This document shows, one piece after another, positions 6,872 through 20,535 of a stretch of DNA of 64,000 nucleotides (the first letter of the stretch is position 1; the number at the start of each line of letters is the position of its first letter). The stretch lies in contig CAZJDL010000001.1 of NCBI GenBank assembly GCA_964544755.1, positions 5,512-69,511 of the forward strand, given 5' to 3'. The translations under genes were made by a program, and so were the position numbers. The DNA is from an uncultured Pseudomonadales bacterium (GTDB lineage Bacteria > Pseudomonadota > Gammaproteobacteria > Pseudomonadales > JAUIET01). A model generated the notes under the pieces. It did no database searches. It was not told where the DNA came from and saw nothing but the letters and a program-made list of their open reading frames with translations.

Positions 6872-8137
6872 ATGCATGCAATAAGATGGCTACTTTATAT
6901 TCTTCTTGCCTTGCTGCTGGTCTTGTTGCTTGGTGCAGCACTCGCTGCCTGGCTGATGCTGCAGAGCCAGCCGCTGGCGCACGCAACCGGCGCAGCACAG
7001 AATGACAGCGCTAACCAGCTCGACTTGATGCAGCTAGGTCGCATCACTCCCGAATCGACGCTGTTACTCGAACTCTCCGAAGCCGAATTAAACCAGTTGG
7101 CGCAGCAACAAATCGCCCAGGTCAGTCCCGCGGTCGAGGCGCGTGTCAGTATTCAAATTACACCGGGCGTCGCACAGGTGGATTTCAGCGGCGCATTGCC
7201 GCTGGCTATTGACAGACGCTATCTGAATGTTCGCAGCCGATACCACGTTGGCGACTCTCCCGCACAAATTAGTCTGACCGATCTACAAGTCGGCAAACTG
7301 CGCATACCCAACGGGTTGCAATCATTGTTACTCCCTTACGCCTTGAGTCACTGCCGCGCAGACAATGACTGCAACGCGGCTTTGACCGCCTATAAAAACG
7401 TGACGCAATTTGAACTCAATGAGGGTGCGTTGCGATTGCAGTACGCGCTTGAACCCGGCGGCCTGAGTGCGGAGGGACAGCAAGACCTGGCCAGCGAAGT
7501 CAGCCGTTTGACGCCGTATTTGCAGGAGCTGGCTGCCATGGCGCTGGAGCGGCAAGGCGAGCGCTTGAGCTTGCATGCGGCCATGCGACACGCGTTTTCG
7601 CTAGCCCAGCGGCAAAGCGTGCGCAGCAACGATGCTGTTGCGGAGAATCGCTCGGCGTTGTTGGCGTTGGCAGCCATGGGCGCCGACCCGCGGGTGCTGG
7701 ACTTACTCAACATGAGCGCGCTGCGCGAACAGACCGAGCAATTCGGCAGTCTCTACCTGCGCGGCCGCAAAGACCTGGCGCAGCACTTCCTCACCTCTGC
7801 CGCGCTGTACCTGCTGGGGGGCAGCGAGCTGAGCGAATACCTGGGAGTTTACAAGGAACTTGACGATGTCGATAAGGGCAAACCGTTCGGGGTGGGCGAT
7901 CTGGTAGCCGATCGCGTCGGCATTCGCCTTGCACAACATGCCACCGAGTCGAAACCTTCAGCGCTGCGCATACAAAGCCAGCTGATTACCGCCGCGTCAG
8001 CAGACGCCTATTTGCTGACAGACGCCACGCTGATGCAGCTGGAAGCCCGCTATCAAGGGGCGAACGGCATCGATGTGCCTGGACTCACCGAGCGCATCGA
8101 CAAATTGCTCGCCGAGCTGCCACTGCTGCAGCAGTAG
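6872..8137 (+). CDS. hypothetical protein with an N-terminal transmembrane anchor
   Basis: 421-aa ORF with a strongly hydrophobic N-terminus (LLYILLALLLVLLLGAALAAWLML). I recognise no catalytic motif. Confidence 0.6.
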   Translation: MHAIRWLLYILLALLLVLLLGAALAAWLMLQSQPLAHATGAAQNDSANQLDLMQLGRITPESTLLLELSEAELNQLAQQQIAQVSPAVEARVSIQITPGVAQVDFSGALPLAIDRRYLNVRSRYHVGDSPAQISLTDLQVGKLRIPNGLQSLLLPYALSHCRADNDCNAALTAYKNVTQFELNEGALRLQYALEPGGLSAEGQQDLASEVSRLTPYLQELAAMALERQGERLSLHAAMRHAFSLAQRQSVRSNDAVAENRSALLALAAMGADPRVLDLLNMSALREQTEQFGSLYLRGRKDLAQHFLTSAALYLLGGSELSEYLGVYKELDDVDKGKPFGVGDLVADRVGIRLAQHATESKPSALRIQSQLITAASADAYLLTDATLMQLEARYQGANGIDVPGLTERIDKLLAELPLLQQ

Positions 8138-8265
8138 CGATTACGCACCGCATTGCACGGCGCCCGCTTCACATTGCAGCCTTTAGATCTACCTTCTATA
8201 CTTCAGTAAGCGCTGCAATAGAGATCTGCAAGCTGTTAATGCTACTTTCGCAATAATTAAATCAA

Positions 8266-10746
8266 ATGAGCCAACCGCAACATATTTTGCTAGCGCACCC
8301 GGATGAGCACAACCTGTATCGCATCAGGCGAGTCTTAAACGAGCGTGGCTTTCTAAACCTGATCGAGTCCGCAGGCGACCAACATACAATCAATGCGCTC
8401 AACGAATATGCATTTGACGCCGTCGTGGTTAACGTCGAACTGGGCATGCTCGATGCCTGGCGCCTGACACGCTTGATTCGCTCGGGCGCACTGAACACCA
8501 AGGCGAACACGCCAGTATTTATTGTATCAGCAACATTTAGCGAGCAGATCGCGCTGGCGACCGCCAAAGAATTTGAGGTCAACGCGTTTATACCCCTTGA
8601 CCAGGCGCACAAATTGCCGCGCCTGATGGAAGACATGTTTAGCCGCGGCGAAATCGAGCCGCCCAAGACCTCTATTCTCATTATCGAAGACTACGCCGAC
8701 ACCGCCAAGCTGGTTGAGCGCGTGCTAAAAAACCGCTTTGTTATTCAGTGCGCCAACGACGGCGAAGCCGGGCTGGAGGCGTGGAAAGAGGGCCGGCACG
8801 ACATTGTGCTGCTTGACCTGATGCTACCGAAGATGTCGGGCGAAGATGTGCTGCGTGAAATTTTGACCATCAAACCTACCCAATCGGTCATTATGATGAC
8901 CGCCTTCGGCAGCCCGGAGAAAGCCGGTAGTCTCATCGTCGGCGGCGCCGTTGATTTTATTGCCAAGCCGTTTCGCGCTGAACAATTGCGCCACGTTTGT
9001 AATATCGCCGCGCACCGGGAAGACTATATTGTCAGCAACCAGCAGTTCGAAGCGCGGCAGAAAGAACTGGCATCCGAAAAGGAACGTGCGCTGGTCACTC
9101 TCAAGTCGATCGGCGACGGTGTCATTACTACTAACGCCAAGGCCAAGGTGGATTATCTGAATCCGGTGGCCGAGCATCTGACCGGCTGGCTAAACGCGGA
9201 AGCCCACGGCAAGCCACTGGGTGAAATCTTCAAGACCTACCATGAATATTCGCGCGTACCGGCCGTCAGCCCGCTGGAGCGATGCCTGAATGAAAAGCGT
9301 TCAATACATTCCAAATCCAATATTCTGCTGCGCAGCCGGCAGGGCCTCGAGTTGGTGATTGAACATTCTGCTTCACCTATTCGCGACAGCAATAATGAGA
9401 TTGTCGGCGCGGTCATGGTGTTTCAAGACAATACAGAAGCGCGCAATCTTGAGAAGCAGCTGACCTATCATGCCAGTCATGACCCATTAACCGGCTTGAA
9501 GAATCGTCAGGTGTTCGACCAGGAAGTTAGCGTGTCATTGAAAGACAGCCATAGCTCACAAGTAGAACATGCGCTGTGCCATATCGACGTTAACGAATTC
9601 AAAATGATTAACGAAAGCCGTGGCCACGGCGCGGGCGACAAGTTACTACAGGAAGTCGCACAAATACTCATCAACAAAGTGCGCGCCCCTAGCGATGCGA
9701 TTGCCCGTTTGAGCGGCCACGAATTTGGTGTGCTGCTACGCTTTTGTCCGATCGATGCCGCCACGCGAATTTGTGAAAACATTTGCAGGGCGTTTGAAGC
9801 GTTTAATTTCAAAACAGGCCGTACTGAATATCAGATCACCGTGTCGATTGGGATTGCACAAGTCAATCAGGACAGCCTCGACTTCCAGGACGTCTTCGCC
9901 GCCTCGCAAGCCGCCTGCTACAAAGCGAAAAATCGCGGCGGCAACCGGGTGCATGTTTTTTCAGCGAACGATGACGAACTCTTGCAGCGGCGTAGCGAAG
10001 TGCAAGTTGCGTCAGAAATTGTGCAAGCAGAACGTGAGAACCGCTTCCAACTCTACTGCCAAAAAATTAAATCCTTGACCGACCCGGACGAAGTCAGTTT
10101 TGAAGTGTTGTTGCGTATGCGGGGCGAGAATAACGAGCTGATTTCGCCAGCACATTTCTTACCCGCCGCCGAACGCTTTAATTTAACCCCACAAATAGAT
10201 CGCTGGGTCGTGCGCAATGCGTTTCAATGGCTGGCAGACAACAAGAGCAAGCTCGATTCGCTGAGCCACTTTGCGATTAACCTGTCGGGCCTGTCGCTGG
10301 GCGACGAGAATTTTTACGATTATATTGCACAACAATTTACCCGCACCGGCGTACCCGCCGATAAGATTTGCTTCGAGATAACCGAAACCGCCGCGGTAAA
10401 GAACTTTAAACTCGCCGGCAGTTTTATCGACGCCATCCGTGAGCTGGGCTGCCGCTTTGCGCTCGACGATTTTGGCACCGGCATGTCGTCCTTTGCATAC
10501 TTGAAAAAACTGAAGGTCGATTTTCTTAAAATCGACGGCATCTTCGTCAAAGACATTCTGCAAGACCCCATCGACCTCGCGATGGTGCGCTCGATCAACG
10601 ATATTGGTCACGTTTCAGGACTTAAAACGATTGCCGAGTTCGTCGAAAACAAGGCGATTGAAGAAAAACTGCGCGAGGTCGGTGTCGACTATGTGCAAGG
10701 CTACGGCATCGACAAACCGAACCCGATTGATGATACACGCTGTTAA
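8266..10746 (+). CDS. response-regulator-type c-di-GMP protein: pseudo-REC, REC, PAS, degenerate GGDEF, EAL
   Basis: Two receiver-like domains. The first has Asn at the phospho-acceptor position (DAVVVNVEL); the second is canonical (DIVLLDLMLP). A PAS domain follows, then a GGDEF domain with SGHEF in place of GGDEF, and an EAL domain (EVLLR, DDFGTG). Confidence 0.85.
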   Translation: MSQPQHILLAHPDEHNLYRIRRVLNERGFLNLIESAGDQHTINALNEYAFDAVVVNVELGMLDAWRLTRLIRSGALNTKANTPVFIVSATFSEQIALATAKEFEVNAFIPLDQAHKLPRLMEDMFSRGEIEPPKTSILIIEDYADTAKLVERVLKNRFVIQCANDGEAGLEAWKEGRHDIVLLDLMLPKMSGEDVLREILTIKPTQSVIMMTAFGSPEKAGSLIVGGAVDFIAKPFRAEQLRHVCNIAAHREDYIVSNQQFEARQKELASEKERALVTLKSIGDGVITTNAKAKVDYLNPVAEHLTGWLNAEAHGKPLGEIFKTYHEYSRVPAVSPLERCLNEKRSIHSKSNILLRSRQGLELVIEHSASPIRDSNNEIVGAVMVFQDNTEARNLEKQLTYHASHDPLTGLKNRQVFDQEVSVSLKDSHSSQVEHALCHIDVNEFKMINESRGHGAGDKLLQEVAQILINKVRAPSDAIARLSGHEFGVLLRFCPIDAATRICENICRAFEAFNFKTGRTEYQITVSIGIAQVNQDSLDFQDVFAASQAACYKAKNRGGNRVHVFSANDDELLQRRSEVQVASEIVQAERENRFQLYCQKIKSLTDPDEVSFEVLLRMRGENNELISPAHFLPAAERFNLTPQIDRWVVRNAFQWLADNKSKLDSLSHFAINLSGLSLGDENFYDYIAQQFTRTGVPADKICFEITETAAVKNFKLAGSFIDAIRELGCRFALDDFGTGMSSFAYLKKLKVDFLKIDGIFVKDILQDPIDLAMVRSINDIGHVSGLKTIAEFVENKAIEEKLREVGVDYVQGYGIDKPNPIDDTRC

Positions 10747-10747
10747 A

Positions 10748-10781
10748 CCTAGTGCACTGTAACGAATAAACTGCACACTAG
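10748..10781. repeat. 34-bp inverted repeat, left copy (CCTAGTGCACTGTAACGAATAAACTGCACACTAG)
   Basis: It is the exact reverse complement of 16690-16723. It starts 1 nt after the TAA of the upstream gene and ends 13 nt before the stop codon of the last gene of the bracketed operon. Confidence 0.95.
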
Positions 10782-10794
10782 AAACCGCGCGCGA

Positions 10795-11613
10795 CTAGTC
10801 AGTCGGCACTGCGCGGATCGGTTTACCGGTATACTCGATATCGTCGCAGCGCAGTGGCAAGAAGGAGCCCTGCGGGCGATCGATATTATCGACGTAACAG
10901 GCTTCAATACCGGAACTCACAATCGCCGCAGAAACATTTTTTAATTGCTCGGGGCTAAAACCCTGATCCGTACCGAAGGCGGCGACGACGCCATTCATAT
11001 TCATTTGCTCGCCATACTGCGCGCTCAAATATGCTTCGATTTCTACCGCCAGCTTCTCATAGGGGCCGATAGGAAAACCCAGTTCACGCGCGTAAGCCCA
11101 TAGTATTTCCACCCGCTCGTCGCCTTTGACCAGTGGCCGGGCGAAGCCGGTGATATTGGGCCGACCTCTTCTTCGAGAGACTTCAAGCTCCACAATTTCT
11201 TTGACCGGCATTCCTTGCAGGCGCTTCGCGTAGGCGGAATGGAGGAATTCGCAGCCTTTCAAAATAGTGCCGCCGCCGTAGACTTCGGAGTAGGCTGCTT
11301 GGATACCGGCCGCTATCGCGGCTGCGTCCGGGCAATTTGCCTCCCCCCCCAGGGCGCCAATCTGGTTACACCATATTCTGGAGTCAGGCCAACTTTGAAA
11401 AATAAAAACCGCTTCTATCCAGTCGGCAATCTTTCGTTCCGGCATTTTTCCGGTCACATTTTGCACATGAATCTGCATGTAGGAATACTTCCCAATCACG
11501 CCATCCAGCAAATTAAGACCGTACGAAAACGCGCCCTTACCGAGTATCCAGCCGCCCGCGGCGCTGTAAACGTTGTTTCTGCGCTGATCCCAATAGTCGG
11601 TTTTATTCGGCAT
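10795..11613 (-). CDS. divergent citryl-CoA lyase / citrate-synthase-fold protein, paralog B
   Basis: Start set at MPNKTDYW, overlapping the stop of the upstream paralog by 11 nt. Residues line up by eye with the citrate synthase/ATP-citrate-lyase C-terminal module (ITGFARPLVKGDERV versus GFGHRVYKxxDPR; C-terminal LPLRCDDIEY versus RHPWDDISY). Confidence 0.6.
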   Translation of the reverse strand: MPNKTDYWDQRRNNVYSAAGGWILGKGAFSYGLNLLDGVIGKYSYMQIHVQNVTGKMPERKIADWIEAVFIFQSWPDSRIWCNQIGALGGEANCPDAAAIAAGIQAAYSEVYGGGTILKGCEFLHSAYAKRLQGMPVKEIVELEVSRRRGRPNITGFARPLVKGDERVEILWAYARELGFPIGPYEKLAVEIEAYLSAQYGEQMNMNGVVAAFGTDQGFSPEQLKNVSAAIVSSGIEACYVDNIDRPQGSFLPLRCDDIEYTGKPIRAVPTD

Positions 11614-12436
11614 TTTCGGTCTCGATGTGATAGTGATCATCGGCGGGAAACGGCACCGATGTGATCGGTTTGCCGACCAGTTCCATGCCATGCGCCAATA
11701 AGCCAGGCGCCGAACACAACTGGTATAGCCCCGCACCCGTCTTGGGATTAAAGCCGAGGTCACATAACACGGCGGCAAACAGCCCGGTTGGCAGCCAACC
11801 TATATTGGCGTGTCGCAGTCCAGCGACGAAACCGGCTGCCCAATGCATACACCCGCCAGCGCCCGGTAACGCCATCAGTGTGTTGGCGATTTTGCCGGTC
11901 AAGGGGTCGATACCATCAAACAAACGGCCAAAGCCGGGCACGCCTATCTCGCTACCGGGGTCAAGCCGGCTAGCCATGGTTGCGGCAAGCTGTTCCGGAT
12001 CGTCGCGGTTGTTGCGTACAATAAAGCGCATCGTCGGCAATACATCCTGCGCACCGCAATGTTCGCCGGCGAGAATTGACAGCGATATTGGCAATATCAA
12101 GGCGGGATCGGTTTTGCCAACAGCAGCTAACACTGCGGCGCGCGTCGCGGGGTGACGCGGACCCGGCGACATAAAGGCCACCATCAGGCAGCCAAACAGT
12201 TCGGCCTGTGCTTTATTTGGCAGCTCGCCGCGAAACAATAAGTAAACCGTATCCGAGAAACTACGTTTGCGTACCAGGTCAAGCAGATTGTAACCGTGGC
12301 AAAAGGCGTTTTCGGTTAAGTAGCTGTTTTCGGGATCACGTTCTTCAAGCCAGATTTTGGTCACCGTTTTTTTGGTGAAGGACTCGTCGCGTCGTTGAAT
12401 TTTCCGGGCTGGTGGTGCGTCGGCTTCGCTACTCAC
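11603..12436 (-). CDS. divergent citryl-CoA lyase / citrate-synthase-fold protein, paralog A
   Basis: GTG start with GGAG 8 nt upstream. Shows the HGYNLLDL...YLLFRGELP motif typical of citrate synthase N-terminal regions, then LMVAFMSPGPRHPAT, LAGEHCGAQD, VPGFGRLFDGIDPL and APGLLAHGMEL, in the same order as the ACLY/CCL motifs. Confidence 0.6.
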   Translation of the reverse strand: MSSEADAPPARKIQRRDESFTKKTVTKIWLEERDPENSYLTENAFCHGYNLLDLVRKRSFSDTVYLLFRGELPNKAQAELFGCLMVAFMSPGPRHPATRAAVLAAVGKTDPALILPISLSILAGEHCGAQDVLPTMRFIVRNNRDDPEQLAATMASRLDPGSEIGVPGFGRLFDGIDPLTGKIANTLMALPGAGGCMHWAAGFVAGLRHANIGWLPTGLFAAVLCDLGFNPKTGAGLYQLCSAPGLLAHGMELVGKPITSVPFPADDHYHIETENAE

Positions 12437-12455
12437 AACGGTTGCTCCTGAAGAG

Positions 12456-14663
12456 TTATTGGTTCAGACGGTAACTGAACTCGGCGAATATCGCTCTGCC
12501 TTCAAGACGGTAATCACCAGGTATTTCTTCGACCGGGGCGGCACTGGTAGCACCCCTGCTGGGCGCGAAGGCGTCTTTATCAAACACGTTGCGCGCCACG
12601 ATAGCGAATTCCAGGTTCTTGAACAATTTCTTACGGCGTAAAACTACATCAACAAGCGCATAGTCATCAACATCATCGCGCTGGTCCGATGCCGCTCTAT
12701 CTCTATCGGCCACCCAATTCGCGGTGGTACTTAAACTCCAGTCTGGCAGAAAATTCCAGGTCGCGGCCAGATACAACTGCCAGCCCGGCGCGTCTGCCAC
12801 GTGGTCACTGGTTGACCTATCTTCGCTGTGTTGCCACGCATAGTTGCCATCCAAAGAAAGAGAGTCGCTGGCTTTCCAGGAGTATTCAACTTCAAAACCA
12901 TAACCGTCCTGGTCAACTGCATTTTTGGCTTGCAGTACCCCACCCGCTGTTGCAGGCGCTACAAAACGGATCAAGTCCCGCATCCGGTAGGTAAACAGGT
13001 TGAGCTTGATATTCGATGTTGGCGTTGGCAGATAATCGAAGGCAAGTTCGATCGTGTCGATCATTTCGGGGTCTATGTTTTCATCACCGTGCAATACCGG
13101 GTTGGTTTCCGATAGTTCCAGAAAAGAGGGTGCCCGAAACGCCCGGCCGTACAGTAACTTCGAACTCAGGTTATAGCTGGTCGCCCACACCAGGGCCAGC
13201 CGCGGGTTGATTGTGCTGCCAAAGTCAGAATAGTCGTCGAAGCGCACACCGGCGGTAAGGCGCCAGTCATTGGCCAGCGCCCATTCGTCCTGCAAGGATG
13301 CGAACAAAATATTACGCTCACTGTCCTCGACAAACACGCTTTCGAAATTGGACGTATCAGTCAACGTACCATCGACGCTGGTTTCGTTCCCGTCGAGCAC
13401 GCCGGGGCCAAAATTTCTGGTTTCTTTCGGATCGCCTTCCTGGCGCTGGAAGCCCGCGGAAAACCGCAGTTTATGTTTGTCCCAGCCGGAATAATAAGTG
13501 ACAAGCTCTGCTGTGTGCTTTTGTTCCTCCCCACCGGGGTTACCTAAAACGCCATCCGGAAACGCCACCACTCGGGAAGCAGGAGGAAGTGAGGTGGTTA
13601 AACTCCCCGTCTCGTTATCAATCAAGGCAAGCGTTCCAGCCGGCAATAAGGTGTATTTGTTATCTGAGTCGAACAGGCTCAATGAGAGGCTCGTTTCATA
13701 ACGCCAATTTTCCGACAGCTCGTCATTGTAGGCCAGCGAAAAAAGATAATAATCGCCGTTTAGCTCACCGCCGGGATCGAGCGCATGCAAAACGCCATCG
13801 CCGACTCCCGTATCGTTTTGAACCCACGCCAGGAATGACGTTTTCCAGTGTTCGTTGTTTAATGCGATGCGGGCATTCAAAATATCGTAGCGCGTAGCAA
13901 GAGGGCCAGGCGCGTTGGAGGCATTGATGCCAAAAGCGCTGTCCCCGAGTGTTTGCAGGTCTGCATCAACAATACGATCGTCATCGCCGTTGCTTTTTGC
14001 ATATTCCAGGCTGGTGGAGAACTGCCATGTATCACCCACTGCGCCGCCAGCTTGTAGCCAGTAATCTTGCTTGTCGAATGACCCATAGCGTACGCCGGCT
14101 TCAATACCGTCGATGTCCGAAGGGCTTTTTGAGATGACATTGATGACCCCGGCAAACGCGTCGGCGCCAAAAACGGCCGAGCCGGGGCCGCGGATGATCT
14201 CGATGCGCTTGATATTTTGCACCGGCATGGTAAATCCGGTCGGCAGGCCACCGTTGAAGACTTGCCGGAGTGGAACACCGTCGATCAACAGCAAAACCTG
14301 CGGGTTTTGCGCCGTATGAATGCCACGAATGGAATAAACCGAACTGAGTACGTTATTGCTGGAGAGTGACACATGCAAGCCCGGCACCATTTCCAGCGCC
14401 TCTTGCAAATTGGTTGCGCCGCGATTGCGAATGTCGGCCTCGCTAACGACGCTGGCGATAGATGGCGCCAACCTGATCGACTGCTCCGTGCCGGTGGAGA
14501 TGCTGATCGTCTCGTCGTCGCCGTACAGCTCCAGCAAATCGTCTTCGTCAAAATCCGAGTATGCGTGAGCAGGCACAAGGCCGAACAACGCAACAATTCC
14601 CGTTAGCAGGATTTCACGGGTACGCTTGCCGACCGGCAATTGATCATAAAATGAGCGACTCAT
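12456..14663 (-). CDS. TonB-dependent outer-membrane receptor
   Basis: Signal peptide, TonB-box-like DETISISTG, plug domain (IEIIRGPGSAVFGADAFAGVINVISK) and a long beta-barrel. It lies 19 nt upstream of paralog A. Confidence 0.88.
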   Translation of the reverse strand: MSRSFYDQLPVGKRTREILLTGIVALFGLVPAHAYSDFDEDDLLELYGDDETISISTGTEQSIRLAPSIASVVSEADIRNRGATNLQEALEMVPGLHVSLSSNNVLSSVYSIRGIHTAQNPQVLLLIDGVPLRQVFNGGLPTGFTMPVQNIKRIEIIRGPGSAVFGADAFAGVINVISKSPSDIDGIEAGVRYGSFDKQDYWLQAGGAVGDTWQFSTSLEYAKSNGDDDRIVDADLQTLGDSAFGINASNAPGPLATRYDILNARIALNNEHWKTSFLAWVQNDTGVGDGVLHALDPGGELNGDYYLFSLAYNDELSENWRYETSLSLSLFDSDNKYTLLPAGTLALIDNETGSLTTSLPPASRVVAFPDGVLGNPGGEEQKHTAELVTYYSGWDKHKLRFSAGFQRQEGDPKETRNFGPGVLDGNETSVDGTLTDTSNFESVFVEDSERNILFASLQDEWALANDWRLTAGVRFDDYSDFGSTINPRLALVWATSYNLSSKLLYGRAFRAPSFLELSETNPVLHGDENIDPEMIDTIELAFDYLPTPTSNIKLNLFTYRMRDLIRFVAPATAGGVLQAKNAVDQDGYGFEVEYSWKASDSLSLDGNYAWQHSEDRSTSDHVADAPGWQLYLAATWNFLPDWSLSTTANWVADRDRAASDQRDDVDDYALVDVVLRRKKLFKNLEFAIVARNVFDKDAFAPSRGATSAAPVEEIPGDYRLEGRAIFAEFSYRLNQ

Positions 14664-14791
14664 TGTTGCTTGTTATCACCCCCGTGACGCATCATTTTTT
14701 ACGATAGCGAGCTACTGGGAAAACCAGGTACTCTTTTCAAGAGAGTATAAATATAGTCGATATTCTACAATTTGCTTATAAAGACGAGTTT

Positions 14792-16669
14792 TTAGTGCAT
14801 TTTTTGCAATACTCTGAGCCGTTCCCCCATCGGTGGCGCTTCCTCAGGGTCGATATAAACGTCTATAACGCTTGGCTTGCTCGATTTTAACAAGGCGCAG
14901 AAATCGATTTGGCCCAGGTCATCGGGAGTTTTGACGCGAATGCCGTTTGCTCCCATCGCAATGGCCACCGCCGCAAAATCAATCGCCGGCAGGTACTGCC
15001 CGACCTGCTCACCGCCGCCAAGCCGCTGCCCGTGTTTGACCATACCGAGTGATTGATCATTCAACACGATGAATAGCACCGGCAAGTTGTGCTCAACGGC
15101 AACCGTCAGCTCCTGGCCGCTCATCAACATGCTGCCATCGCCGGTGATACACACGGTCGGCGCCTTGCGGCTGCCTAACGAGGTACCTACGCTGGCGCCA
15201 ATCGCCCAGGCCATCGAACCGTAACCCATTGCGGTACGCACGGTGCCGACAAATTTACGTTGCAGATAATGCAGCCCCCAACACCACGCATTACCCGCGT
15301 CCAGCAGAAACCGGGTGTGGTTCGGCAAGACATGGGCCAAATCGTACATCAAACGTTGTGGTTTAAGCGGCACGGCAGCGGATAAGCACAGCTCGGCTTT
15401 GTCATAGGTAAGTTGCGTAGGTAGCAGGTCGGGCGCTAACTTCACCAGCCCTTTAGCTGCAGGCGGCGTTTCGTCAACGGCATGCAATAGCACCGTGGTG
15501 GGTTTGTGTCGCGGTACAACCCGCAGCAATTTACCAAACACCGCCTTGAGATTGCCGAACACGTGCAAATAGGCCATCGGCGACTGCATGAAGTTTTCGG
15601 CACAGCTTTCGACATGGATGAGCCTGTCGTTCAGGATAACGTTGTCCCAACCCGCCGTTGCAATCTCACTCAGCCCGGTGCCTATGGCGATAACGTTCGC
15701 GACGTCGGATCGTTCCAGGGCGGCGCGCGCGCTGGCATGTCCCGCCAAGCCAAAAACGCCGCGGTACTGCGGATGATAAGCATTGACCCATTGCTTGCCG
15801 CCAGGTGTCGCAACGATTAATGCGTTAACCGCTTCGGCGAGTTGAATAATTTCATCGATCGCTTCGCCGCAGCTTTCGCCGATGAGAAACACCGGCCGCT
15901 GCCGCGCGCGCATGGCATTTAACAAGTCTGTTTCCAGTTGCGCGACCGCCCGCTGGTCGATAACCGGCGGCGAGCGCAGCTGAGTCGCAACGTTAAAGAA
16001 GGTGGGCACAGCAACGATCGACCCTTTAAGGATATCTAACGGGATGCTCAAATGCACCGGCCCGCGCGGCTGGCTGAAGGCGCTGATCAACGCGCTGACC
16101 AGCTTGCTTTCCAACTGCGAGGGATGCGACACCAGCGAATTGTAGCGCGTACAGTGCTCGAACATACCCACCACATCGATGGCATCGCTGGACGACTCCT
16201 GCAACCCCAGCCGGCCAAAATTGGGTAAAGCGATTTGCGGCGTGATCACCAACATCGGAATGTGATCGGCATAGGCCGATGCGACACCGGTCAACAAGTT
16301 GGTGCTTCCTGGGCCCGTGGTCGCGCAGCAAACCGCGAGCTTACCGGTTTCACGCGAGTAGCCGTCGGCCATAAAGGCAGCACCGGCTTCATGGCGTGCG
16401 AAAACGGGCGTCGGCCCATGCCGCGAGCGCTTGCTTTTGCGCGCCAGTGCCCGCTGACCATAATTGATCGTGGCCAACCCGGCACCGCGTTGCTTCCTGG
16501 CTATCGCATCAAAAAACGGTTCTATCGCCCCACCTTGAATACCAAAAACATACTCCACACCTATTTGCGCGAGGTACTCGACGATAAGGTCAGAGTAGGT
16601 GTGATTGGTGGCCGCAACGGGGTTTTGCTGAAGTGCATTTTGCAAAGCTTCTACTACATTATCAGTCAT
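14792..16669 (-). CDS. thiamine-diphosphate-dependent enzyme, acetolactate synthase large-subunit-like
   Basis: PYR domain with the catalytic-Glu motif RHEAG, GPGSTNL, and the ThDP-binding GDGS...NDQ motif. GGAG lies 8 nt upstream of the ATG. No ALS small subunit is adjacent. Confidence 0.85.
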   Translation of the reverse strand: MTDNVVEALQNALQQNPVAATNHTYSDLIVEYLAQIGVEYVFGIQGGAIEPFFDAIARKQRGAGLATINYGQRALARKSKRSRHGPTPVFARHEAGAAFMADGYSRETGKLAVCCATTGPGSTNLLTGVASAYADHIPMLVITPQIALPNFGRLGLQESSSDAIDVVGMFEHCTRYNSLVSHPSQLESKLVSALISAFSQPRGPVHLSIPLDILKGSIVAVPTFFNVATQLRSPPVIDQRAVAQLETDLLNAMRARQRPVFLIGESCGEAIDEIIQLAEAVNALIVATPGGKQWVNAYHPQYRGVFGLAGHASARAALERSDVANVIAIGTGLSEIATAGWDNVILNDRLIHVESCAENFMQSPMAYLHVFGNLKAVFGKLLRVVPRHKPTTVLLHAVDETPPAAKGLVKLAPDLLPTQLTYDKAELCLSAAVPLKPQRLMYDLAHVLPNHTRFLLDAGNAWCWGLHYLQRKFVGTVRTAMGYGSMAWAIGASVGTSLGSRKAPTVCITGDGSMLMSGQELTVAVEHNLPVLFIVLNDQSLGMVKHGQRLGGGEQVGQYLPAIDFAAVAIAMGANGIRVKTPDDLGQIDFCALLKSSKPSVIDVYIDPEEAPPMGERLRVLQKMH

Positions 16670-16689
16670 TGGCTGCTCCAGGTAAAAAG

Positions 16690-16723
16690 CTAGTGTGCAG
16701 TTTATTCGTTACAGTGCACTAGG
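16690..16723. repeat. 34-bp inverted repeat, right copy (CTAGTGTGCAGTTTATTCGTTACAGTGCACTAGG)
   Basis: It is the exact reverse complement of 10748-10781 and lies 21 nt upstream of the ThDP-enzyme start codon, next to its Shine-Dalgarno sequence. Confidence 0.95.
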
Positions 16724-17138
16724 GCCTGCTAACACTATTTTCATCATTATTGCCGGAGACCATTTTTCGGCCACCCAGGCAGAAGGAGCGAGCTGTAGTG
16801 ACTCTACATAAGCGATTGATAACGCCGCTGGGCGAGAAATGGTTCCGCCCCTGCGGATTGCGCCTGCTGCTTCTTATCCTCGCCAGCGGCATGCCGCAAG
16901 CTGGCTTATTCTTTTCGTTTAAAATTAATTTTTGGTGACAAACTGCGGCGTGGCCACAACAAGGGCGAGCATGGTATCGTTCGCATTTAGAATAGTCACT
17001 TCGTATCACTAAAGTTTAACAAGATTAAACAATCTACAAGATGGCGGCTAAAAACCATACAAGACAGTCGGCAAGCGCGGAATGCCGAAGTTTTTCACCC
17101 TCAGAATGAGGTAAGTCCCGGATTATTGGCTAGACTGT

Positions 17139-18167
17139 ATGGATACTTTTGTCGTGATGTGCCATCGCGCAGAACCTCCGGCCCCAGGAAAAGCGTTGTT
17201 TGTGAATTGCTTTTGTTCACGCCTTACTCGCATCGTTAAGCATTTAACGTGGTGGAGGCTGCTGTGCTGCGCTTTGTTTTTTGCGTTGACGCAACCTGCG
17301 TTTGCCGCACCGCTGAAATTCGCCGTTGTTGTGCCTGAAACCGCAAGCAAAGCGCAGGTCATTTATGACGAAATCGTACAGGGCCTACGCAGCGCGGAAA
17401 ATGTTGAGCTAACGCTTTACCGGCTCAGCAGCGCCGCGAAGCGCGACGAAGCGGCAGTGCACAAATGGTTAAGCGGGCAAAACGCGAATGCCGTAATCAG
17501 CATCGGCAGGAACGCACATAACCTGGTAAAAAACTTCGCCACTGATATACCGCTTATCGCCGGCGGAATATCCATTTCGCCAAACCACACCTCTGGCGTC
17601 AGCCTGACCGGCGATCCACAGGAGTTTTTCAAAAACCTGGTGCGAATTGCACCCAAGGTCGAACGGATTTTTCTGATTTACAACAATGCGATCAATGGCT
17701 GGTGGGTAGATTCAGCACGCGCCGCCGCCAGTGAACACAACATAGATCTGCAAGCTTTGCAGGCGGAAGACGTAAAGTCAGGCGCCAAATTGTATCAGCG
17801 CGTATTGAACGGCGCGCGTTCGGGAAAGGACGCCATATGGATTCCGTTAGTCAGTATTGTACCGTCAAAAACAGTACTGCCAATGGTACTGAGGAAGGCA
17901 TGGGAAAAAAACCTCGTGGTATTTACCAATAGCGCGGCCCATGCCCGACAAGGCGCTTTATTCTCGATGTATCCCGACAATGTGGCACTGGGTGAACAGT
18001 TGATAGAGCTGGCCATCGAGCAAACGACAACCAGCGGCGCCAACGTCAGGGTGGCGCCGGTCAAAAAATTGAAAACGGCTTTCAACTTACGCACGGCGTC
18101 CCACCTGGGACTGAAATATTCGTTACGGCGGGGCGGTGGTTTTGACCGAATTTATTCAGCACAGTAA
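17139..18167 (+). CDS. periplasmic ABC-type substrate-binding-like protein (likely sensor partner); start uncertain
   Basis: Signal peptide (WWRLLCCALFFALTQPAFA/AP) followed by a binding-protein-like fold. It overlaps the downstream histidine kinase gene by 32 nt. The true start may be an internal GTG or TTG. Confidence 0.55.
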   Translation: MDTFVVMCHRAEPPAPGKALFVNCFCSRLTRIVKHLTWWRLLCCALFFALTQPAFAAPLKFAVVVPETASKAQVIYDEIVQGLRSAENVELTLYRLSSAAKRDEAAVHKWLSGQNANAVISIGRNAHNLVKNFATDIPLIAGGISISPNHTSGVSLTGDPQEFFKNLVRIAPKVERIFLIYNNAINGWWVDSARAAASEHNIDLQALQAEDVKSGAKLYQRVLNGARSGKDAIWIPLVSIVPSKTVLPMVLRKAWEKNLVVFTNSAAHARQGALFSMYPDNVALGEQLIELAIEQTTTSGANVRVAPVKKLKTAFNLRTASHLGLKYSLRRGGGFDRIYSAQ

Positions 18168-19770
18168 TCCGCAACAGCTGACGCAGCAAGCTGTCACTCA
18201 TGAAAAACGCAGCAGCTTTCGACGCCAGCTGTTTCTGATTTTTGCCACTTGCGGGGTCGCTGTCGCGCTCGCCGTGGCAATCGCCTACTCCTATTCCACC
18301 AGTGAATATATTCGCGACTTGTATGTAAGCCAGGCACTGCAGGCGACCCAGAACTTTGCGCAACTAAGCGAGTTGGCGCTACTCCTCGACAGTGGTGAAA
18401 ATGCCGAGGACGCAGCAAAGAGCACCTTGTCATTCCCGTTGATTAAATATGTGTCGATTGTTAGCGGCAATGGAAAAATGCTGTTTGACCAAGGTCAGTG
18501 GCATGGCGAATATCTGCAGCTTGGCAACCAGCGGCCACGTGAACCCGGCGCCGCGCTGATTAGTGAACAGGACAACGCCTGGCACTTTTGGGCGCCGGTT
18601 TTCTCCCAAACTGCCGAGGCGCAAGCTGATGACGGCCTGATTTTGACCGGCGACAAGCAAAAAAGCTACCTTGGCTTTGTTTATGTGGTGCAAGACAAAA
18701 AGGAATTTCTCGCCAGCCAGTACGAAAGCTTTAGGCGCAACGCCATGATCGGTTTAATGTGCGCGGTGGCCTTCATTATCCTGCTGCACTTCGCCATAAA
18801 TCGCTTGCTGGCGCCCATGACCAGACTGGCAGCGGTAATGGACCGCACGCGGCAGGGCGATACCGCCGCGCGCGCTACGCCCGAGGGAGCGGTAGAGCTG
18901 GTCAACATGGCGGAAATCTACAATAGCGTGATGGACAATCTTGCCGATCGTGACGTACGCCTGATGAGGCAAAAAGATGAACTGGAGTCTGAAGTCACGC
19001 TGCGTACGCAGGAACTTGTGCAGGCGCGCGACGAAGCCATTGACGCCAGCCGCCACAAGTCGGAATTTTTGTCTAACATCAGCCATGAGCTGCGCACACC
19101 GCTGCAGGCGATCATGGGCTATTCTGACATTCTGCACGAGAGACTCGAGGACGAAGGCTTCGATGATTTATGCGAAGACACCGAATGCATTACCGACAAC
19201 GCCAACCACCTGTTGAACTTGATAAACAGCATTCTGGACCTCGCAAAAATCGAAGCCGGCCGCATGGATATTCATTTGGCTTATGTCAAAATTAATAACG
19301 TGGTACGCCAGGCTCAGGAAACGATTCTGCCATTGATGCAGAAGAGCGCCAACGAACTGGTTGTGGAGATCGAAGAAACTGACCAGATGATTAAGATCGA
19401 CGAAACCAAGCTACTGCAAATATTACTCAATCTTTTGAGTAACGCCGGCAAGTTTACCCAGATGGGCCGGGTAACGGTCAGCGTGCGGCAAAGCCAGGAC
19501 GAATTAAATATCGAAGTCGCAGATACCGGCATTGGTATGGAGCAGCAACACTTAAATGTGATTTTCGACGCGTTCCGCCAGATTGACGGCAGCGCGACAC
19601 GAGAATTTGAGGGCACGGGTTTGGGCTTATCGATCACGCGGCGCTTCTGCGAGGTGATGGGCGGCTACATCAGCGTGGTCAGTCAGCCCGGTCGTGGCTC
19701 CACCTTCAGCGTGCGTTTTCCGTTGCCAATTCGCGCCAGCGACAATAGTGAAAACATCGACTTGGCTTAG
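18136..19770 (+). CDS. sensor histidine kinase (TM, periplasmic region, HAMP, HisKA, HATPase)
   Basis: H-box (SHELRTPL), N-box (LLNLLSNAGKF), and G-boxes (DTGIGM, GTGLGLSI). No response regulator gene is directly adjacent. Confidence 0.85.
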   Translation: MVLTEFIQHSNPQQLTQQAVTHEKRSSFRRQLFLIFATCGVAVALAVAIAYSYSTSEYIRDLYVSQALQATQNFAQLSELALLLDSGENAEDAAKSTLSFPLIKYVSIVSGNGKMLFDQGQWHGEYLQLGNQRPREPGAALISEQDNAWHFWAPVFSQTAEAQADDGLILTGDKQKSYLGFVYVVQDKKEFLASQYESFRRNAMIGLMCAVAFIILLHFAINRLLAPMTRLAAVMDRTRQGDTAARATPEGAVELVNMAEIYNSVMDNLADRDVRLMRQKDELESEVTLRTQELVQARDEAIDASRHKSEFLSNISHELRTPLQAIMGYSDILHERLEDEGFDDLCEDTECITDNANHLLNLINSILDLAKIEAGRMDIHLAYVKINNVVRQAQETILPLMQKSANELVVEIEETDQMIKIDETKLLQILLNLLSNAGKFTQMGRVTVSVRQSQDELNIEVADTGIGMEQQHLNVIFDAFRQIDGSATREFEGTGLGLSITRRFCEVMGGYISVVSQPGRGSTFSVRFPLPIRASDNSENIDLA

Positions 19771-19812
19771 CTGCCAGCATGTCTGGACGTGAAGTTATTT
19801 TGCCGTGTGCCC

Positions 19813-20535
19813 TTAGTCCTTTATACTGGGTTTGACTAACGAACGCAGCCAATTCAACGTGCTGTTGCCCTTCAGCAACACATAATCGAGACGGTCATAT
19901 TCCGTTGCCAGCGCAACCGCATCGGTAAAAAAATCGGCTCTGGTCGTCAACTTTTCTGCGCTATCCAGTTCTTTCACCACCTTCGCCGGATTGCCGGCAA
20001 CCACCACGTTAGCCGGCACGTCTCCAACCACAACCGCGCGTGCGGCAACAATGCTGTTGTCTCCAATGCTGACCCCCTTCAGCACGGTCGCATGATCTCC
20101 CAGCCACACGTTATTACCAATATGTACCGGCGTTACCTCACGCGGCCGTTCGATCCGGTTGTAAACACCATGCCAATCGGAATCTGTAATGTAAACACCG
20201 TGGGCCAGCATGCAACTGTCACCAATCACAATTTCATCACAAGCGCTGATTCTGACACCTGGCGTAATCATAACCGCAGCGCCAATTTGAATACGCCCGC
20301 AGTCCGGCACCTGGTTCCACACCCCGATACGCGTGTGGCTGTCTTTTTCGGCGACAATGGTCGCCGACTCACCGATGGAAATATTCGGTCCCGAGATGTG
20401 AATATACCAGGGGTTCATCAGCGTATAATGGTCGCCGAGATGATCCAGGTGTGGTCTTACGTAGTGGCGCACATACCAACGGCGAAATCGCAGATAGTAT
20501 TTTTTGACGTAGTAGGGTCGCAAATCTTTGCGCAT
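19813..20535 (-). CDS. hexapeptide-repeat (LbH) acyl/acetyltransferase
   Basis: Repeated [LIV]G-x4 hexapeptide pattern (IGNNVWLGDHATVLKGVSIGDNSIVAARAVV). Confidence 0.7.
   Translation of the reverse strand: MRKDLRPYYVKKYYLRFRRWYVRHYVRPHLDHLGDHYTLMNPWYIHISGPNISIGESATIVAEKDSHTRIGVWNQVPDCGRIQIGAAVMITPGVRISACDEIVIGDSCMLAHGVYITDSDWHGVYNRIERPREVTPVHIGNNVWLGDHATVLKGVSIGDNSIVAARAVVVGDVPANVVVAGNPAKVVKELDSAEKLTTRADFFTDAVALATEYDRLDYVLLKGNSTLNWLRSLVKPSIKD

Follow-up and report, generated by a model that had tools for sequence, protein, structure and literature searches.

A four-gene block flanked by signalling genes

We analysed a stretch of 64,000 nucleotides from an uncultured Pseudomonadales bacterium (NCBI GenBank assembly GCA_964544755.1, contig CAZJDL010000001.1, positions 5,512 to 69,511 of the forward strand). 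This whole stretch is referred to as the window and all coordinates are given relative to its first nucleotide. We focused on a block of four genes on the minus strand and on three signalling genes flanking it. The block begins with a gene for a thiamine diphosphate (ThDP)-dependent enzyme of the ScyA/BbmA/CsmA-like carboligase type (14792-16669, 625 aa), followed by a gene for a TonB-dependent receptor (12456-14663, 735 aa) and by the genes for two paralogous proteins termed CSA (11603-12436, 277 aa) and CSB (10795-11613, 272 aa), both of which are predicted to adopt the fold of citryl-CoA lyase (CCL). The ThDP and receptor genes are separated by 128 nt and the receptor and CSA genes by 19 nt, and the CSA and CSB genes overlap by 11 nt. 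CSA starts with a GTG codon that has an AGGAG motif 8 nt upstream, and CSB with an ATG at 11613, from which its 272 aa are counted. Gene order, gaps and overlap were as given in a preliminary description of this DNA that was made from the sequence alone. The domain identities proposed there also held up, as Pfam and NCBIfam returned ThDP enzyme N, M and C domains, Plug and barrel domains for the receptor and weak CCL/citrate synthase matches for CSA and CSB. The 128-nt gap upstream of the receptor gene could house a promoter, and co-transcription of the ThDP gene with the rest of the block is thus a prediction. In other lineages the ThDP gene is often found on the opposite strand, with receptor-CSA-CSB or CSA-CSB remaining contiguous.

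Divergent from the block and upstream of it lie two plus-strand genes. They encode a PF04392-like periplasmic binding protein with a signal peptide (17139-18167) and its partner, an adjacent membrane histidine kinase (18136-19770) with two transmembrane segments, a periplasmic domain of ~150 aa and HAMP, HisKA and HATPase domains. Downstream of the block, convergent with it and 48 nt from CSB, lies the plus-strand gene of a response regulator (8266-10746) composed of a pseudo-REC, a REC, a PAS, a degenerate GGDEF (SGHEF) and an intact EAL domain. The preliminary description had noted the lack of an inner-membrane transporter, of a regulator and of TonB/ExbBD. The statement was right for the transporter and for TonB/ExbBD, neither of which was found in the block, in the 64-kb window or among the conserved neighbours in the 80 loci described below. 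It was wrong for the regulator, because the kinase and the REC-REC-PAS-GGDEF-EAL protein flank the block, and these flanking regulatory genes (17139-19770 and 8266-10746) are co-conserved with it. No DNA-binding regulator was present in the flanks of the block. The remainder of the window is ordinary chromosomal core and includes pilMNOPQ, ponA, priA, argS, hslU, ubiB, gltB and hemE.

The seven genes are conserved together across phyla

More than 1,000 relatives of CSA are found in the protein database. Scanning one genome per species gave 242 loci, 80 of which were fetched with 10-kb flanks. Open reading frames (ORFs) were called in all 80 loci and clustered without reference to the window genes. 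The seven commonest neighbour families obtained in this way were precisely the seven genes of the window, and every other family occurred in at most 16 loci. This unbiased clustering rules out chance adjacency. When only the 44 loci with at least 7 kb on both sides were considered (the full-flank set), CSB and the receptor were found together in 39. These 39 loci also carried the ThDP enzyme (37/39), a periplasmic binder or the kinase (35/39) and the dual-REC regulator (31/39), and 30 of them carried everything.

The hosts are spread over several phyla. Among the Gammaproteobacteria they comprise Pseudomonadales metagenome-assembled genomes (MAGs; 77-79% identity), Cellvibrio, Chromatiales, Thiohalomonadales and Candidatus Tenderia, and among the Betaproteobacteria Gallionella, Sideroxydans and Sideroxyarcus. 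Desulfuromusa kysingii, Malonomonas rubra, Trichloromonas, Electrothrix and Desulfobulbaceae represent the Desulfobacterota, and Nitrospirota are a further phylum. Gene order differs between these lineages. Chromatiales and Tenderia show the order ThDP, receptor, CSA, CSB, and Gallionellaceae the order ThDP, CSA, CSB, an optional short-chain dehydrogenase/reductase (SDR) and receptor. Desulfuromonadales have binding protein, kinase, receptor, CSA and CSB in a row with ThDP enzyme and regulator on the opposite strand, and in Cellvibrio a DUF4154-kinase gene is followed by receptor, CSA and CSB, again with regulator and ThDP enzyme on the opposite strand. As the linkage persists although the lineages reshuffle the order of the genes, we take it to reflect functional coupling, and the seven genes almost certainly constitute one functional unit. 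The preliminary description had made its proposal depend on the four block genes being co-conserved in other genomes, which they clearly are.

Full-text searches of the literature (for the combination of receptor, CCL and ThDP enzyme, and for PF04392, BbmA/CsmA, DUF4154-TonB and kinase-c-di-GMP themes) returned no description of this system. No NCBIfam model names any of the four block proteins, and source annotations do not go beyond ‘citrate synthase’ or ‘hypothetical protein’. We therefore regard the system, and an enzyme family within it, as uncharacterised.

The ThDP enzyme is related to α-hydroxy-β-keto-acid synthases

All three TPP_enzyme domains (N, M and C) of the ThDP enzyme scored above the Pfam cutoffs, and the cofactor motifs are intact, namely ARHEAG with the activating Glu and GDGSMLMSGQELTVAVEHNLPVLFIVLND, which represents the GDG...N(D/N) motif for ThDP/Mg binding. 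The protein belongs to the POX/ALS-like three-domain superfamily. It remained below all NCBIfam equivalog cutoffs. Of the acetolactate synthase (ALS) models the best was TIGR00118 with 271.8 bits against a cutoff of 538, the other ALS models also being far below their cutoffs, and the ScyA and ScyA-related models gave 223 and 246 bits against cutoffs of 1020 and 1000, respectively. Among solved structures, BbmA (248 bits) and CsmA (245 bits) matched best (2e-72; PDB 8x3x and 8x3z), compared with 154 bits for ALS (E. coli ALS I, 6e-44), 111 bits for 2-hydroxyacyl-CoA lyase (7e-31) and 86 bits for oxalyl-CoA decarboxylase (3e-23). In addition, neither an ALS small subunit (IlvN/IlvH) nor an ilv context was found in the block, in the 64-kb window or among the conserved neighbours in the 80 loci. 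The sub-cutoff equivalog scores, the missing small subunit and the closer relation to BbmA and CsmA rule out a role as branched-chain ALS, as the preliminary description had already argued from the absence of the small subunit.

By similarity, the enzyme is thus closest to the α-hydroxy-β-keto-acid synthases BbmA and CsmA and not to ALS. Enzymes of the BbmA/CsmA/ScyA type couple aryl-pyruvates. The window enzyme is predicted to couple two 2-oxo acids in a reaction in which the second carboxylate is kept. CsmA is termed an ‘α-hydroxy-β-keto acid synthase’ in a passage of PMC13307353 that cites Liu et al., Nat Chem 2025. BbmA/CsmA, ScyA (scytonemin) and NzsH (carbazole) share with the window enzyme the three-domain ThDP fold as well as the HE-Glu and GDG...N(D/N) motifs, and like the window enzyme they are stand-alone large subunits inside natural-product clusters. 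The NCBIfam ‘ScyA-related’ subfamily is among the top matches of the window enzyme. The differences from the ScyA types lie in the far sub-cutoff scores and in a basic insertion of ~25 residues (…GAGLATINYGQRALARKSKRSRHGPTP…) at residues ~60-88 of the N-terminal domain, after the first helix. This insertion is missing from BbmA and also from a homologue fused to CSA (P0371, see below). To our knowledge, CCL-fold partner proteins occur in none of the BbmA, CsmA, ScyA and NzsH pathways.

CSA and CSB: a citryl-CoA lyase fold without the catalytic triad

CSA and CSB are distant paralogues (BLASTP E=0.002) and are only weakly related to named families. Against NCBIfam, the best CCL subfamily gave 86 for CSA (cutoff 212), and the best score for CSB was 48 (cutoff 193). 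The Pfam Citrate_synt model matched CSA with 27.0, exactly at the cutoff and spanning 47 residues only, and did not match CSB. Profiles built from the two families matched the Hydrogenobacter citryl-CoA lyase 6hxp (1e-29 for CSA and 2e-13 for CSB). The same structure was the top Foldseek match of both AlphaFold models, with TM-scores of 0.67-0.72 for CSA (mean predicted confidence, pLDDT, 86) and 0.60-0.64 for CSB (pLDDT 74). A common fold with 6hxp, with the CCL module of ATP-citrate lyase (ACL) and with the citrate synthase family PF00285 is therefore predicted (TM 0.60-0.72). Shared motifs are PG[FY]G, AH..E in CSA and a C-terminal EYxGxxxRxxP in CSB.

The catalytic residues of the family are H274, H320 and D375 in pig citrate synthase, the Asp corresponding to D1026 in ACLY. 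We located the respective columns by alignment to 6hxp and to the CCL module of Chlorobium ACL (6qcl). In the references, the first His lies in a D-H-G motif, the second in PG-x-G-H-R and the Asp in N-V-D-G, this Asp being the residue that is mutated in the PDB entries named ‘ACLY-D1026A’ and ‘D541A’. In all 80 CSA sequences the three columns are occupied by P, by S, N, K or R, and by T or P. In all 70 CSB sequences they hold P, S or A, then A or I, and then N, G or T. A canonical His, His or Asp was found at no triad position in any of the 150 sequences, and the Arg preceding the PGL motif is also gone. Both families possess invariant sets of their own. For CSA these are PGPRH, R99, D226, AHGxE and the N-terminal residues R16, E31 and N37, and for CSB they are WPDxRIWCN, GDER and three Cys. 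PGPRH occupies positions 91-95 of CSA, in which H249 and E252 are likewise invariant, and the invariant positions of CSB include D77, D165 and R167 as well as the cysteines C82, C239 and C256.

The absence of the triad from 150 of 150 sequences rules out that CSA and CSB are genuine citryl-CoA lyases or citrate synthases, and the C-C chemistry of the CCL type that the preliminary description had considered for the pair finds no support. Fold models and alignments instead suggest that CSA and CSB possess the CCL fold but not its chemistry. A further difference concerns their partners: CSA and CSB form an obligate hetero-pair, which is sometimes fused, and their link or fusion is to a ThDP enzyme and not to a succinyl-CoA-synthetase-like module. 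Export of CSA by the Tat pathway through a conserved ‘RR’ was considered and dismissed by eye, as no hydrophobic h-region follows it.

ThDP enzyme, CSA and CSB form one enzyme system

Natural fusions between the three enzymes came to light when 1.84 billion representative proteins were searched with a profile. In P0371 (885 aa) the ThDP enzyme is fused to CSA, and the ThDP part shares 41% identity with the enzyme of the window over 606 aa. In the locus of P0371 (L083) the fused gene is followed by CSB, and receptor and sensor are absent. BLASTP against CSB confirmed P0249 as a fusion of CSA and CSB. In each of another three proteins (P0334, P0352 and P0383; 511-533 aa) the CSA profile finds two or three matching stretches, consistent with CSA-CSB fusions. 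The pairwise-identity matrices of CSA and CSB correlate with r=0.85 (53 loci), from which we conclude that the two proteins co-evolve. As ThDP enzyme and CSA as well as CSA and CSB occur as natural fusions, the three proteins almost certainly act as one unit.

Several lineages add genes to this core. An SDR adjoins CSB in 16 of the 80 loci. In the clusters of Electrothrix and Desulfobulbaceae, a PF00891 O-methyltransferase, a condensation-domain-like protein and/or a sulfotransferase are located between CSB and the ThDP enzyme. The PF00891-type O-methyltransferases are of the phenol type. A Nitrospirota locus (L066) consists of a BTAD regulator, ThDP enzyme, CSA, CSB and a small multidrug exporter and lacks the receptor. 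Owing to the tailoring genes, the receptor-less version with BTAD regulator and exporter, the fusions and the lack of a conserved importer, we regard biosynthesis as the probable direction of the pathway rather than catabolism. The preliminary description had left open whether the block serves the uptake and processing of an organic acid or the production and recapture of a small molecule. Tailoring enzymes, the BTAD/exporter version and the fusions make the latter the better fit, and the former is the poorer one for want of a conserved inner-membrane transporter.

One close relative of the window has lost most of the ThDP gene. In the metagenomic strain L082 (Logan SRR26701711, 98% identical), a clean deletion of 1,622 bp with a 7-nt junction overlap corresponds to window positions 15338-16959. 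It removes codons 1-444 of the ThDP enzyme (two thirds), the leader with one arm of an inverted repeat (see below) and ~290 bp of the divergent intergenic region. A TPP_enzyme_C stub of 183 aa is retained. Binding protein, kinase and receptor are intact, as are CSA and CSB. L082 may be a ‘listener/cheater’ variant that has lost the synthase, or it may be an assembly artefact.

The receptor appears dedicated to the cluster

In Pfam searches the receptor showed a Plug domain (65-173) and a TonB_dep_Rec_b-barrel domain (287-692), and its translated sequence starts with a recognisable signal sequence. Signal peptide, plug and 22-strand-barrel domain identify it as a TonB-dependent transporter. It has no NCBIfam equivalog, and solved structures matched at the level of the plug only. 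Even between phyla, receptor orthologues linked to the cluster are 38-51% identical along more than 90% of their length, suggesting that the receptor is dedicated to this cluster. FecA-type cell-surface signalling was ruled out: Pfam did not detect an STN domain, and neither the flanks nor the conserved neighbours contain sigma or anti-sigma genes.

In L046, L047, L052, L055, L058 and other Gallionellaceae and Desulfobulbaceae loci, two to four receptors of the cluster type stand in tandem. They fall into two classes that are ~45% and ~38% identical to the window receptor, which suggests receptor diversification for variant ligands. The window itself encodes a second TonB-dependent receptor (61858-63987, 709 aa), upstream of which lie genes for a DUF1415 protein, an OmpA-family protein and an alpha/beta hydrolase. 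It aligns with the cluster receptor over the plug only (27% identity over 176 aa).

The sensory arm is predicted to end in c-di-GMP turnover

The binding protein matched the Pfam family ABC_sub_bind, and its translation contains a signal peptide that ends in ...QPAFA/AP. No match was obtained among solved structures. Its gene adjoins the sensor gene wherever it is present, which is the case in 28 of the 44 full-flank loci. The periplasmic part of the sensor is exchanged between lineages: most of them use PF04392, Cellvibrio has DUF4154 (YfiR-like) fused to the kinase, and Desulfobulbaceae have a PhnD-like protein, either alone or together with PF04392. Members of PF04392 whose structures are solved bind L-Trp, L-Tyr or L-Phe (PMC10443332). 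This gives a weak hint that the ligand of the system is aromatic. The hint agrees with the aryl-pyruvate preference of the ScyA/BbmA/CsmA types and with the phenol-type O-methyltransferase.

In the regulator, REC2 carries the phospho-acceptor Asp (LLDLMLP) and REC1 has Asn at this position, making it a pseudo-receiver. The EAL motifs EITE, DDFGTG, KIDG and QGY are present. The GGDEF domain is degenerate, with SGHEF in place of GGDEF and DVNEFK in place of DLDxFK. Among 37 regulator homologues GGDEF is intact in 32. The degenerate form (SGHEF/SSHEF) is confined to this strain and its two closest relatives, and the EAL motifs are conserved. The motifs thus predict a phosphodiesterase in this strain. 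No DNA-binding domain was found in the regulator and its output is therefore cyclic di-GMP (c-di-GMP).

Two natural fusions connect kinase and regulator. In Sideroxydans (L052), PAS-GGDEF-EAL directly follows the transmembrane-periplasmic-HAMP module of the kinase (31% identity over 264 aa, E=6e-30) in one fused protein, encoded beside the binding-protein gene, and in L007 a single protein of 1,504 aa comprises HAMP, HisKA, HATPase, Hpt, REC, GGDEF and EAL domains. Domains, motifs and these fusions suggest that kinase and regulator are partners in a two-component system with c-di-GMP output. In 13 loci, the dual-REC head carries a PAS-HisKA-HATPase output in place of GGDEF-EAL.

A proposed circuit and its alternatives

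We propose that the block supplies the enzymes and the uptake function at the heart of a self-contained module of seven genes, which would make a small molecule, take it back in and sense it. In the cytoplasm, the ThDP enzyme would join 2-oxo acids to an α-hydroxy-β-keto-acid or acyloin scaffold, possibly an aromatic one, and would do so in complex with a CSA/CSB heteromer whose rebuilt active site might perform a next step. In some lineages the product would then be tailored by the SDR, the O-methyltransferase, the condensation-like acyltransferase or the sulfotransferase. Export would follow a route encoded outside the cluster. The receptor would admit the product, or a complex of it, to the periplasm only, and a ligand that stops there would explain the missing inner-membrane transporter. 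In the periplasm, the PF04392-type binding protein would present the product to the kinase, which would phosphorylate the REC-PAS-GGDEF-EAL protein and alter c-di-GMP turnover, in this strain by hydrolysis only, the GGDEF domain being degenerate. The change in c-di-GMP presumably steers attachment, biofilm formation or motility.

This would be an autoinducer circuit of the quorum-sensing type if the product of the synthase is the ligand of the receptor and sensor to which it is genomically linked. We hold the chain as a whole (a secreted, probably 2-oxo-acid-derived metabolite that is re-admitted by the receptor, read by binding protein and kinase and converted into a c-di-GMP output) to be tentative, with a chance a little short of even. 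Its firm parts are the co-conservation, the folds, the lost triad, the fusions and the c-di-GMP enzymes at its end, whereas the biosynthetic direction, the match between ligand and product and the class of product are inferences. A more specific version would be a widespread and hitherto unrecognised, energy-dependent and gated form of quorum or public-good sensing, in which the metabolite made by the trio is too large or too scarce for porins and is admitted to the periplasm through the TonB-dependent gate to set c-di-GMP. Its hosts would be iron oxidisers, cable bacteria, electroactive bacteria and polysaccharide degraders, and variants that have lost the synthase (L082) would be listeners or cheaters. 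This version is speculative and we rate it as rather unlikely.

Several observations weigh against the proposed circuit. The ligand of receptor and sensor could be unrelated to the product of the enzymes, and the periplasmic sensor module varies by lineage (PF04392, DUF4154 or PhnD-like), which is odd for one ligand everywhere. The loss of the ThDP enzyme in L082 is as compatible with a sensory arm that does not depend on the enzymes as it is with a ‘cheater’. CSA and CSB, being devoid of any canonical catalytic residue, might not be enzymes. The ThDP gene of cable bacteria is just ~31% identical to that of the window. Product, exporter and ligand are all putative and none is described in the literature. 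Finally, solitary CSA homologues (50-52% identical) exist in five gammaproteobacterial MAG loci (L010, L013, L020, L022 and L038, near 7.6-10.8 kb), where CSA lies downstream of a fadE-fadA-fadB-fadD-thioesterase array (acyl-CoA dehydrogenase, thiolase, FadB-like protein, acyl-CoA synthetase and hotdog thioesterase). CSB, receptor and ThDP genes were not found nearby in these five loci. A single lineage may account for all five MAGs.

A siderophore-like molecule, as raised in the preliminary description, would turn the module into a nutritional system. ThDP enzyme, CSA and CSB would then make a small chelator, the receptor would recapture its metal-loaded form, and binding protein and kinase would merely report its arrival. 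Biosynthetic genes beside a dedicated TonB-dependent receptor are the classic siderophore layout, with which the tailoring genes are compatible, and iron or redox gradients are home to many of the hosts (Gallionellaceae, Sideroxydans, Tenderia, Desulfuromonadales and cable bacteria). The NCBIfam subfamily ‘TonB-dependent siderophore receptor’ is also among the best matches of the receptor, albeit below threshold (137 against 223.5 bits). However, the best match to a Fur box (12/19) lies within the background of random windows, and the families conserved in the 80 loci include neither an inner-membrane importer of the ABC or MFS type nor a reductase or an esterase. They also lack nonribosomal peptide synthetases (NRPS) and NRPS-independent siderophore (NIS) synthetases, and the enzymes of the block are unlike any known siderophore synthetase. 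The output is c-di-GMP or a phosphorelay and not transcription of uptake genes, and receptor-less versions exist (L066 and L083). Since no Fur box stands out from the background, inner-membrane uptake genes are missing and the output is c-di-GMP, a siderophore role has no specific support and we consider a metallophore improbable.

The first of the above objections can be extended to an explanation in which ligand and product differ altogether. Receptor, binding protein and kinase would respond to a cue from outside, such as an aromatic compound released by neighbours or by decaying matter, and the enzymes would be a co-regulated output or a detoxifying branch. The exchange of sensor modules between lineages speaks for this, as do the occurrence of the enzyme trio without receptor or sensor in L066 and L083 and the near-identical strain L082, which lost the ThDP gene and keeps receptor, CSA/CSB and sensors. 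Against it speaks the tight operon contact of the receptor with CSA-CSB (19 nt here and mostly below 60 nt elsewhere), and the regulator has no DNA-binding domain with which to control the enzyme genes. Tight linkage over several phyla is easiest to understand if receptor and enzymes handle one molecule, and we give the explanation little weight. We judge it still less probable that the module is catabolic, the receptor importing a specific organic acid that is cleaved by the ThDP enzyme and the CCL-like proteins. Both ThDP and citrate synthase family enzymes make or break C-C bonds, and the solitary CSA behind beta-oxidation genes in the five loci mentioned above is the sole hint of acyl-CoA handling by the family. 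Against this stand the absence of a conserved inner-membrane transporter from all 80 loci, the lack of the catalytic His/His/Asp in all 150 CSA and CSB sequences and the grouping of the ThDP enzyme with biosynthetic carboligases. O-methyltransferase, sulfotransferase, condensation-like genes and BTAD regulator are moreover hallmarks of biosynthesis.

Comparison with known systems

The proposed make-and-sense circuit has counterparts in several known systems. As in siderophore clusters including that of pyoverdine, biosynthetic genes and a dedicated receptor share one locus, and a self-made molecule would return as a signal. Pyoverdine self-signalling runs through FpvA-FpvR-PvdS. In contrast to siderophore and FpvA systems, the module has no STN domain, no anti-sigma/ECF pair, no inner-membrane importer and no Fur box, and a route of binding protein, kinase and c-di-GMP enzyme would take their place. 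Nothing testable about the locus makes it a siderophore locus.

TonB-gated periplasmic sensing is known from PfeA with PfeS/PfeR in Pseudomonas aeruginosa and from SusC-type transporters with hybrid two-component sensors in Bacteroides. The genes of the module suggest a like logic of TonB-dependent entry followed by periplasmic two-component detection. In PfeA-PfeSR and the SusC hybrids the last component is a DNA-binding regulator, which switches on genes for uptake or catabolism, whereas the module ends in a c-di-GMP enzyme or, in some lineages, in a further kinase, and it adds a separate binding protein. LuxP-LuxQ (autoinducer-2, AI-2) and TorT-TorS (trimethylamine N-oxide, TMAO) are binding-protein-dependent kinases. 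As in LuxPQ and TorTS, a free periplasmic binding protein is encoded beside the kinase and would serve as its ligand-binding subunit, a principle described in general terms in PMC10443332. The module differs by its binding-protein family (PF04392, or DUF4154/PhnD-like elsewhere), by the added outer-membrane gate and by the c-di-GMP output. It resembles siderophore make-and-recapture loci, TonB-gated sensing systems and LuxPQ/TorTS kinases and is a member of none of them.

If the proposal is true, CSA and CSB would be the first branch of the citrate synthase/citryl-CoA lyase fold that has a different active site and is physically coupled to a ThDP carboligase, a coupling that would imply new natural-product chemistry. 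The sensory arm would represent a new signalling route, which starts at a TonB-dependent outer-membrane gate and reaches c-di-GMP by way of a periplasmic binding protein and a kinase, tying an extracellular metabolite to surface behaviour. The module would also provide a handle on Gallionellaceae, Sideroxydans, Candidatus Tenderia, Electrothrix and Desulfuromonadales, in which decisions on attachment and biofilm formation have hardly been studied despite their ecological importance. It is compact, with three enzyme genes that lend themselves to heterologous expression, and has cultured hosts in Cellvibrio mixtus, Desulfuromusa kysingii and Malonomonas rubra, so that the hypothesis is directly testable.

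Further observations at the locus

Rfam returned no riboswitch or attenuator (TPP, c-di-GMP or others) below E=0.18 across positions 8000-20000, and the fold of the leader RNA was no better than that of shuffled sequences (z=-0.96).

A perfect 34-bp inverted repeat flanks exactly the four-gene block (10748-10781 and 16690-16723). One arm begins 2 nt past the stop codon of the regulator gene, 14 nt from the CSB stop codon, and the other ends 21 nt upstream of the ATG of the ThDP gene. None would be expected by chance, and the two copies are the only ones across the 64 kb. Each arm forms an imperfect hairpin. On the strand of the operon, CTTTTT and next the ribosome-binding site come after the upstream copy. 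The repeat could be an element resembling repetitive extragenic palindromes (REP) or miniature inverted-repeat transposable elements (MITE), or an attenuator, or its arms could mark a segment whose inversion would uncouple operon and promoter. In L001, L002 and L081 (77-95% identical) the spacer between CSB and regulator, the only arm position that these loci cover, lacks the repeat, and for this reason we did not adopt it as part of the system. The contig of L082 ends within the downstream arm.

An ORF of 421 aa (6872-8137) adjoins the regulator gene. It has no Pfam or NCBIfam match, and only two close relatives, L002 and L081, have it conserved in this position.

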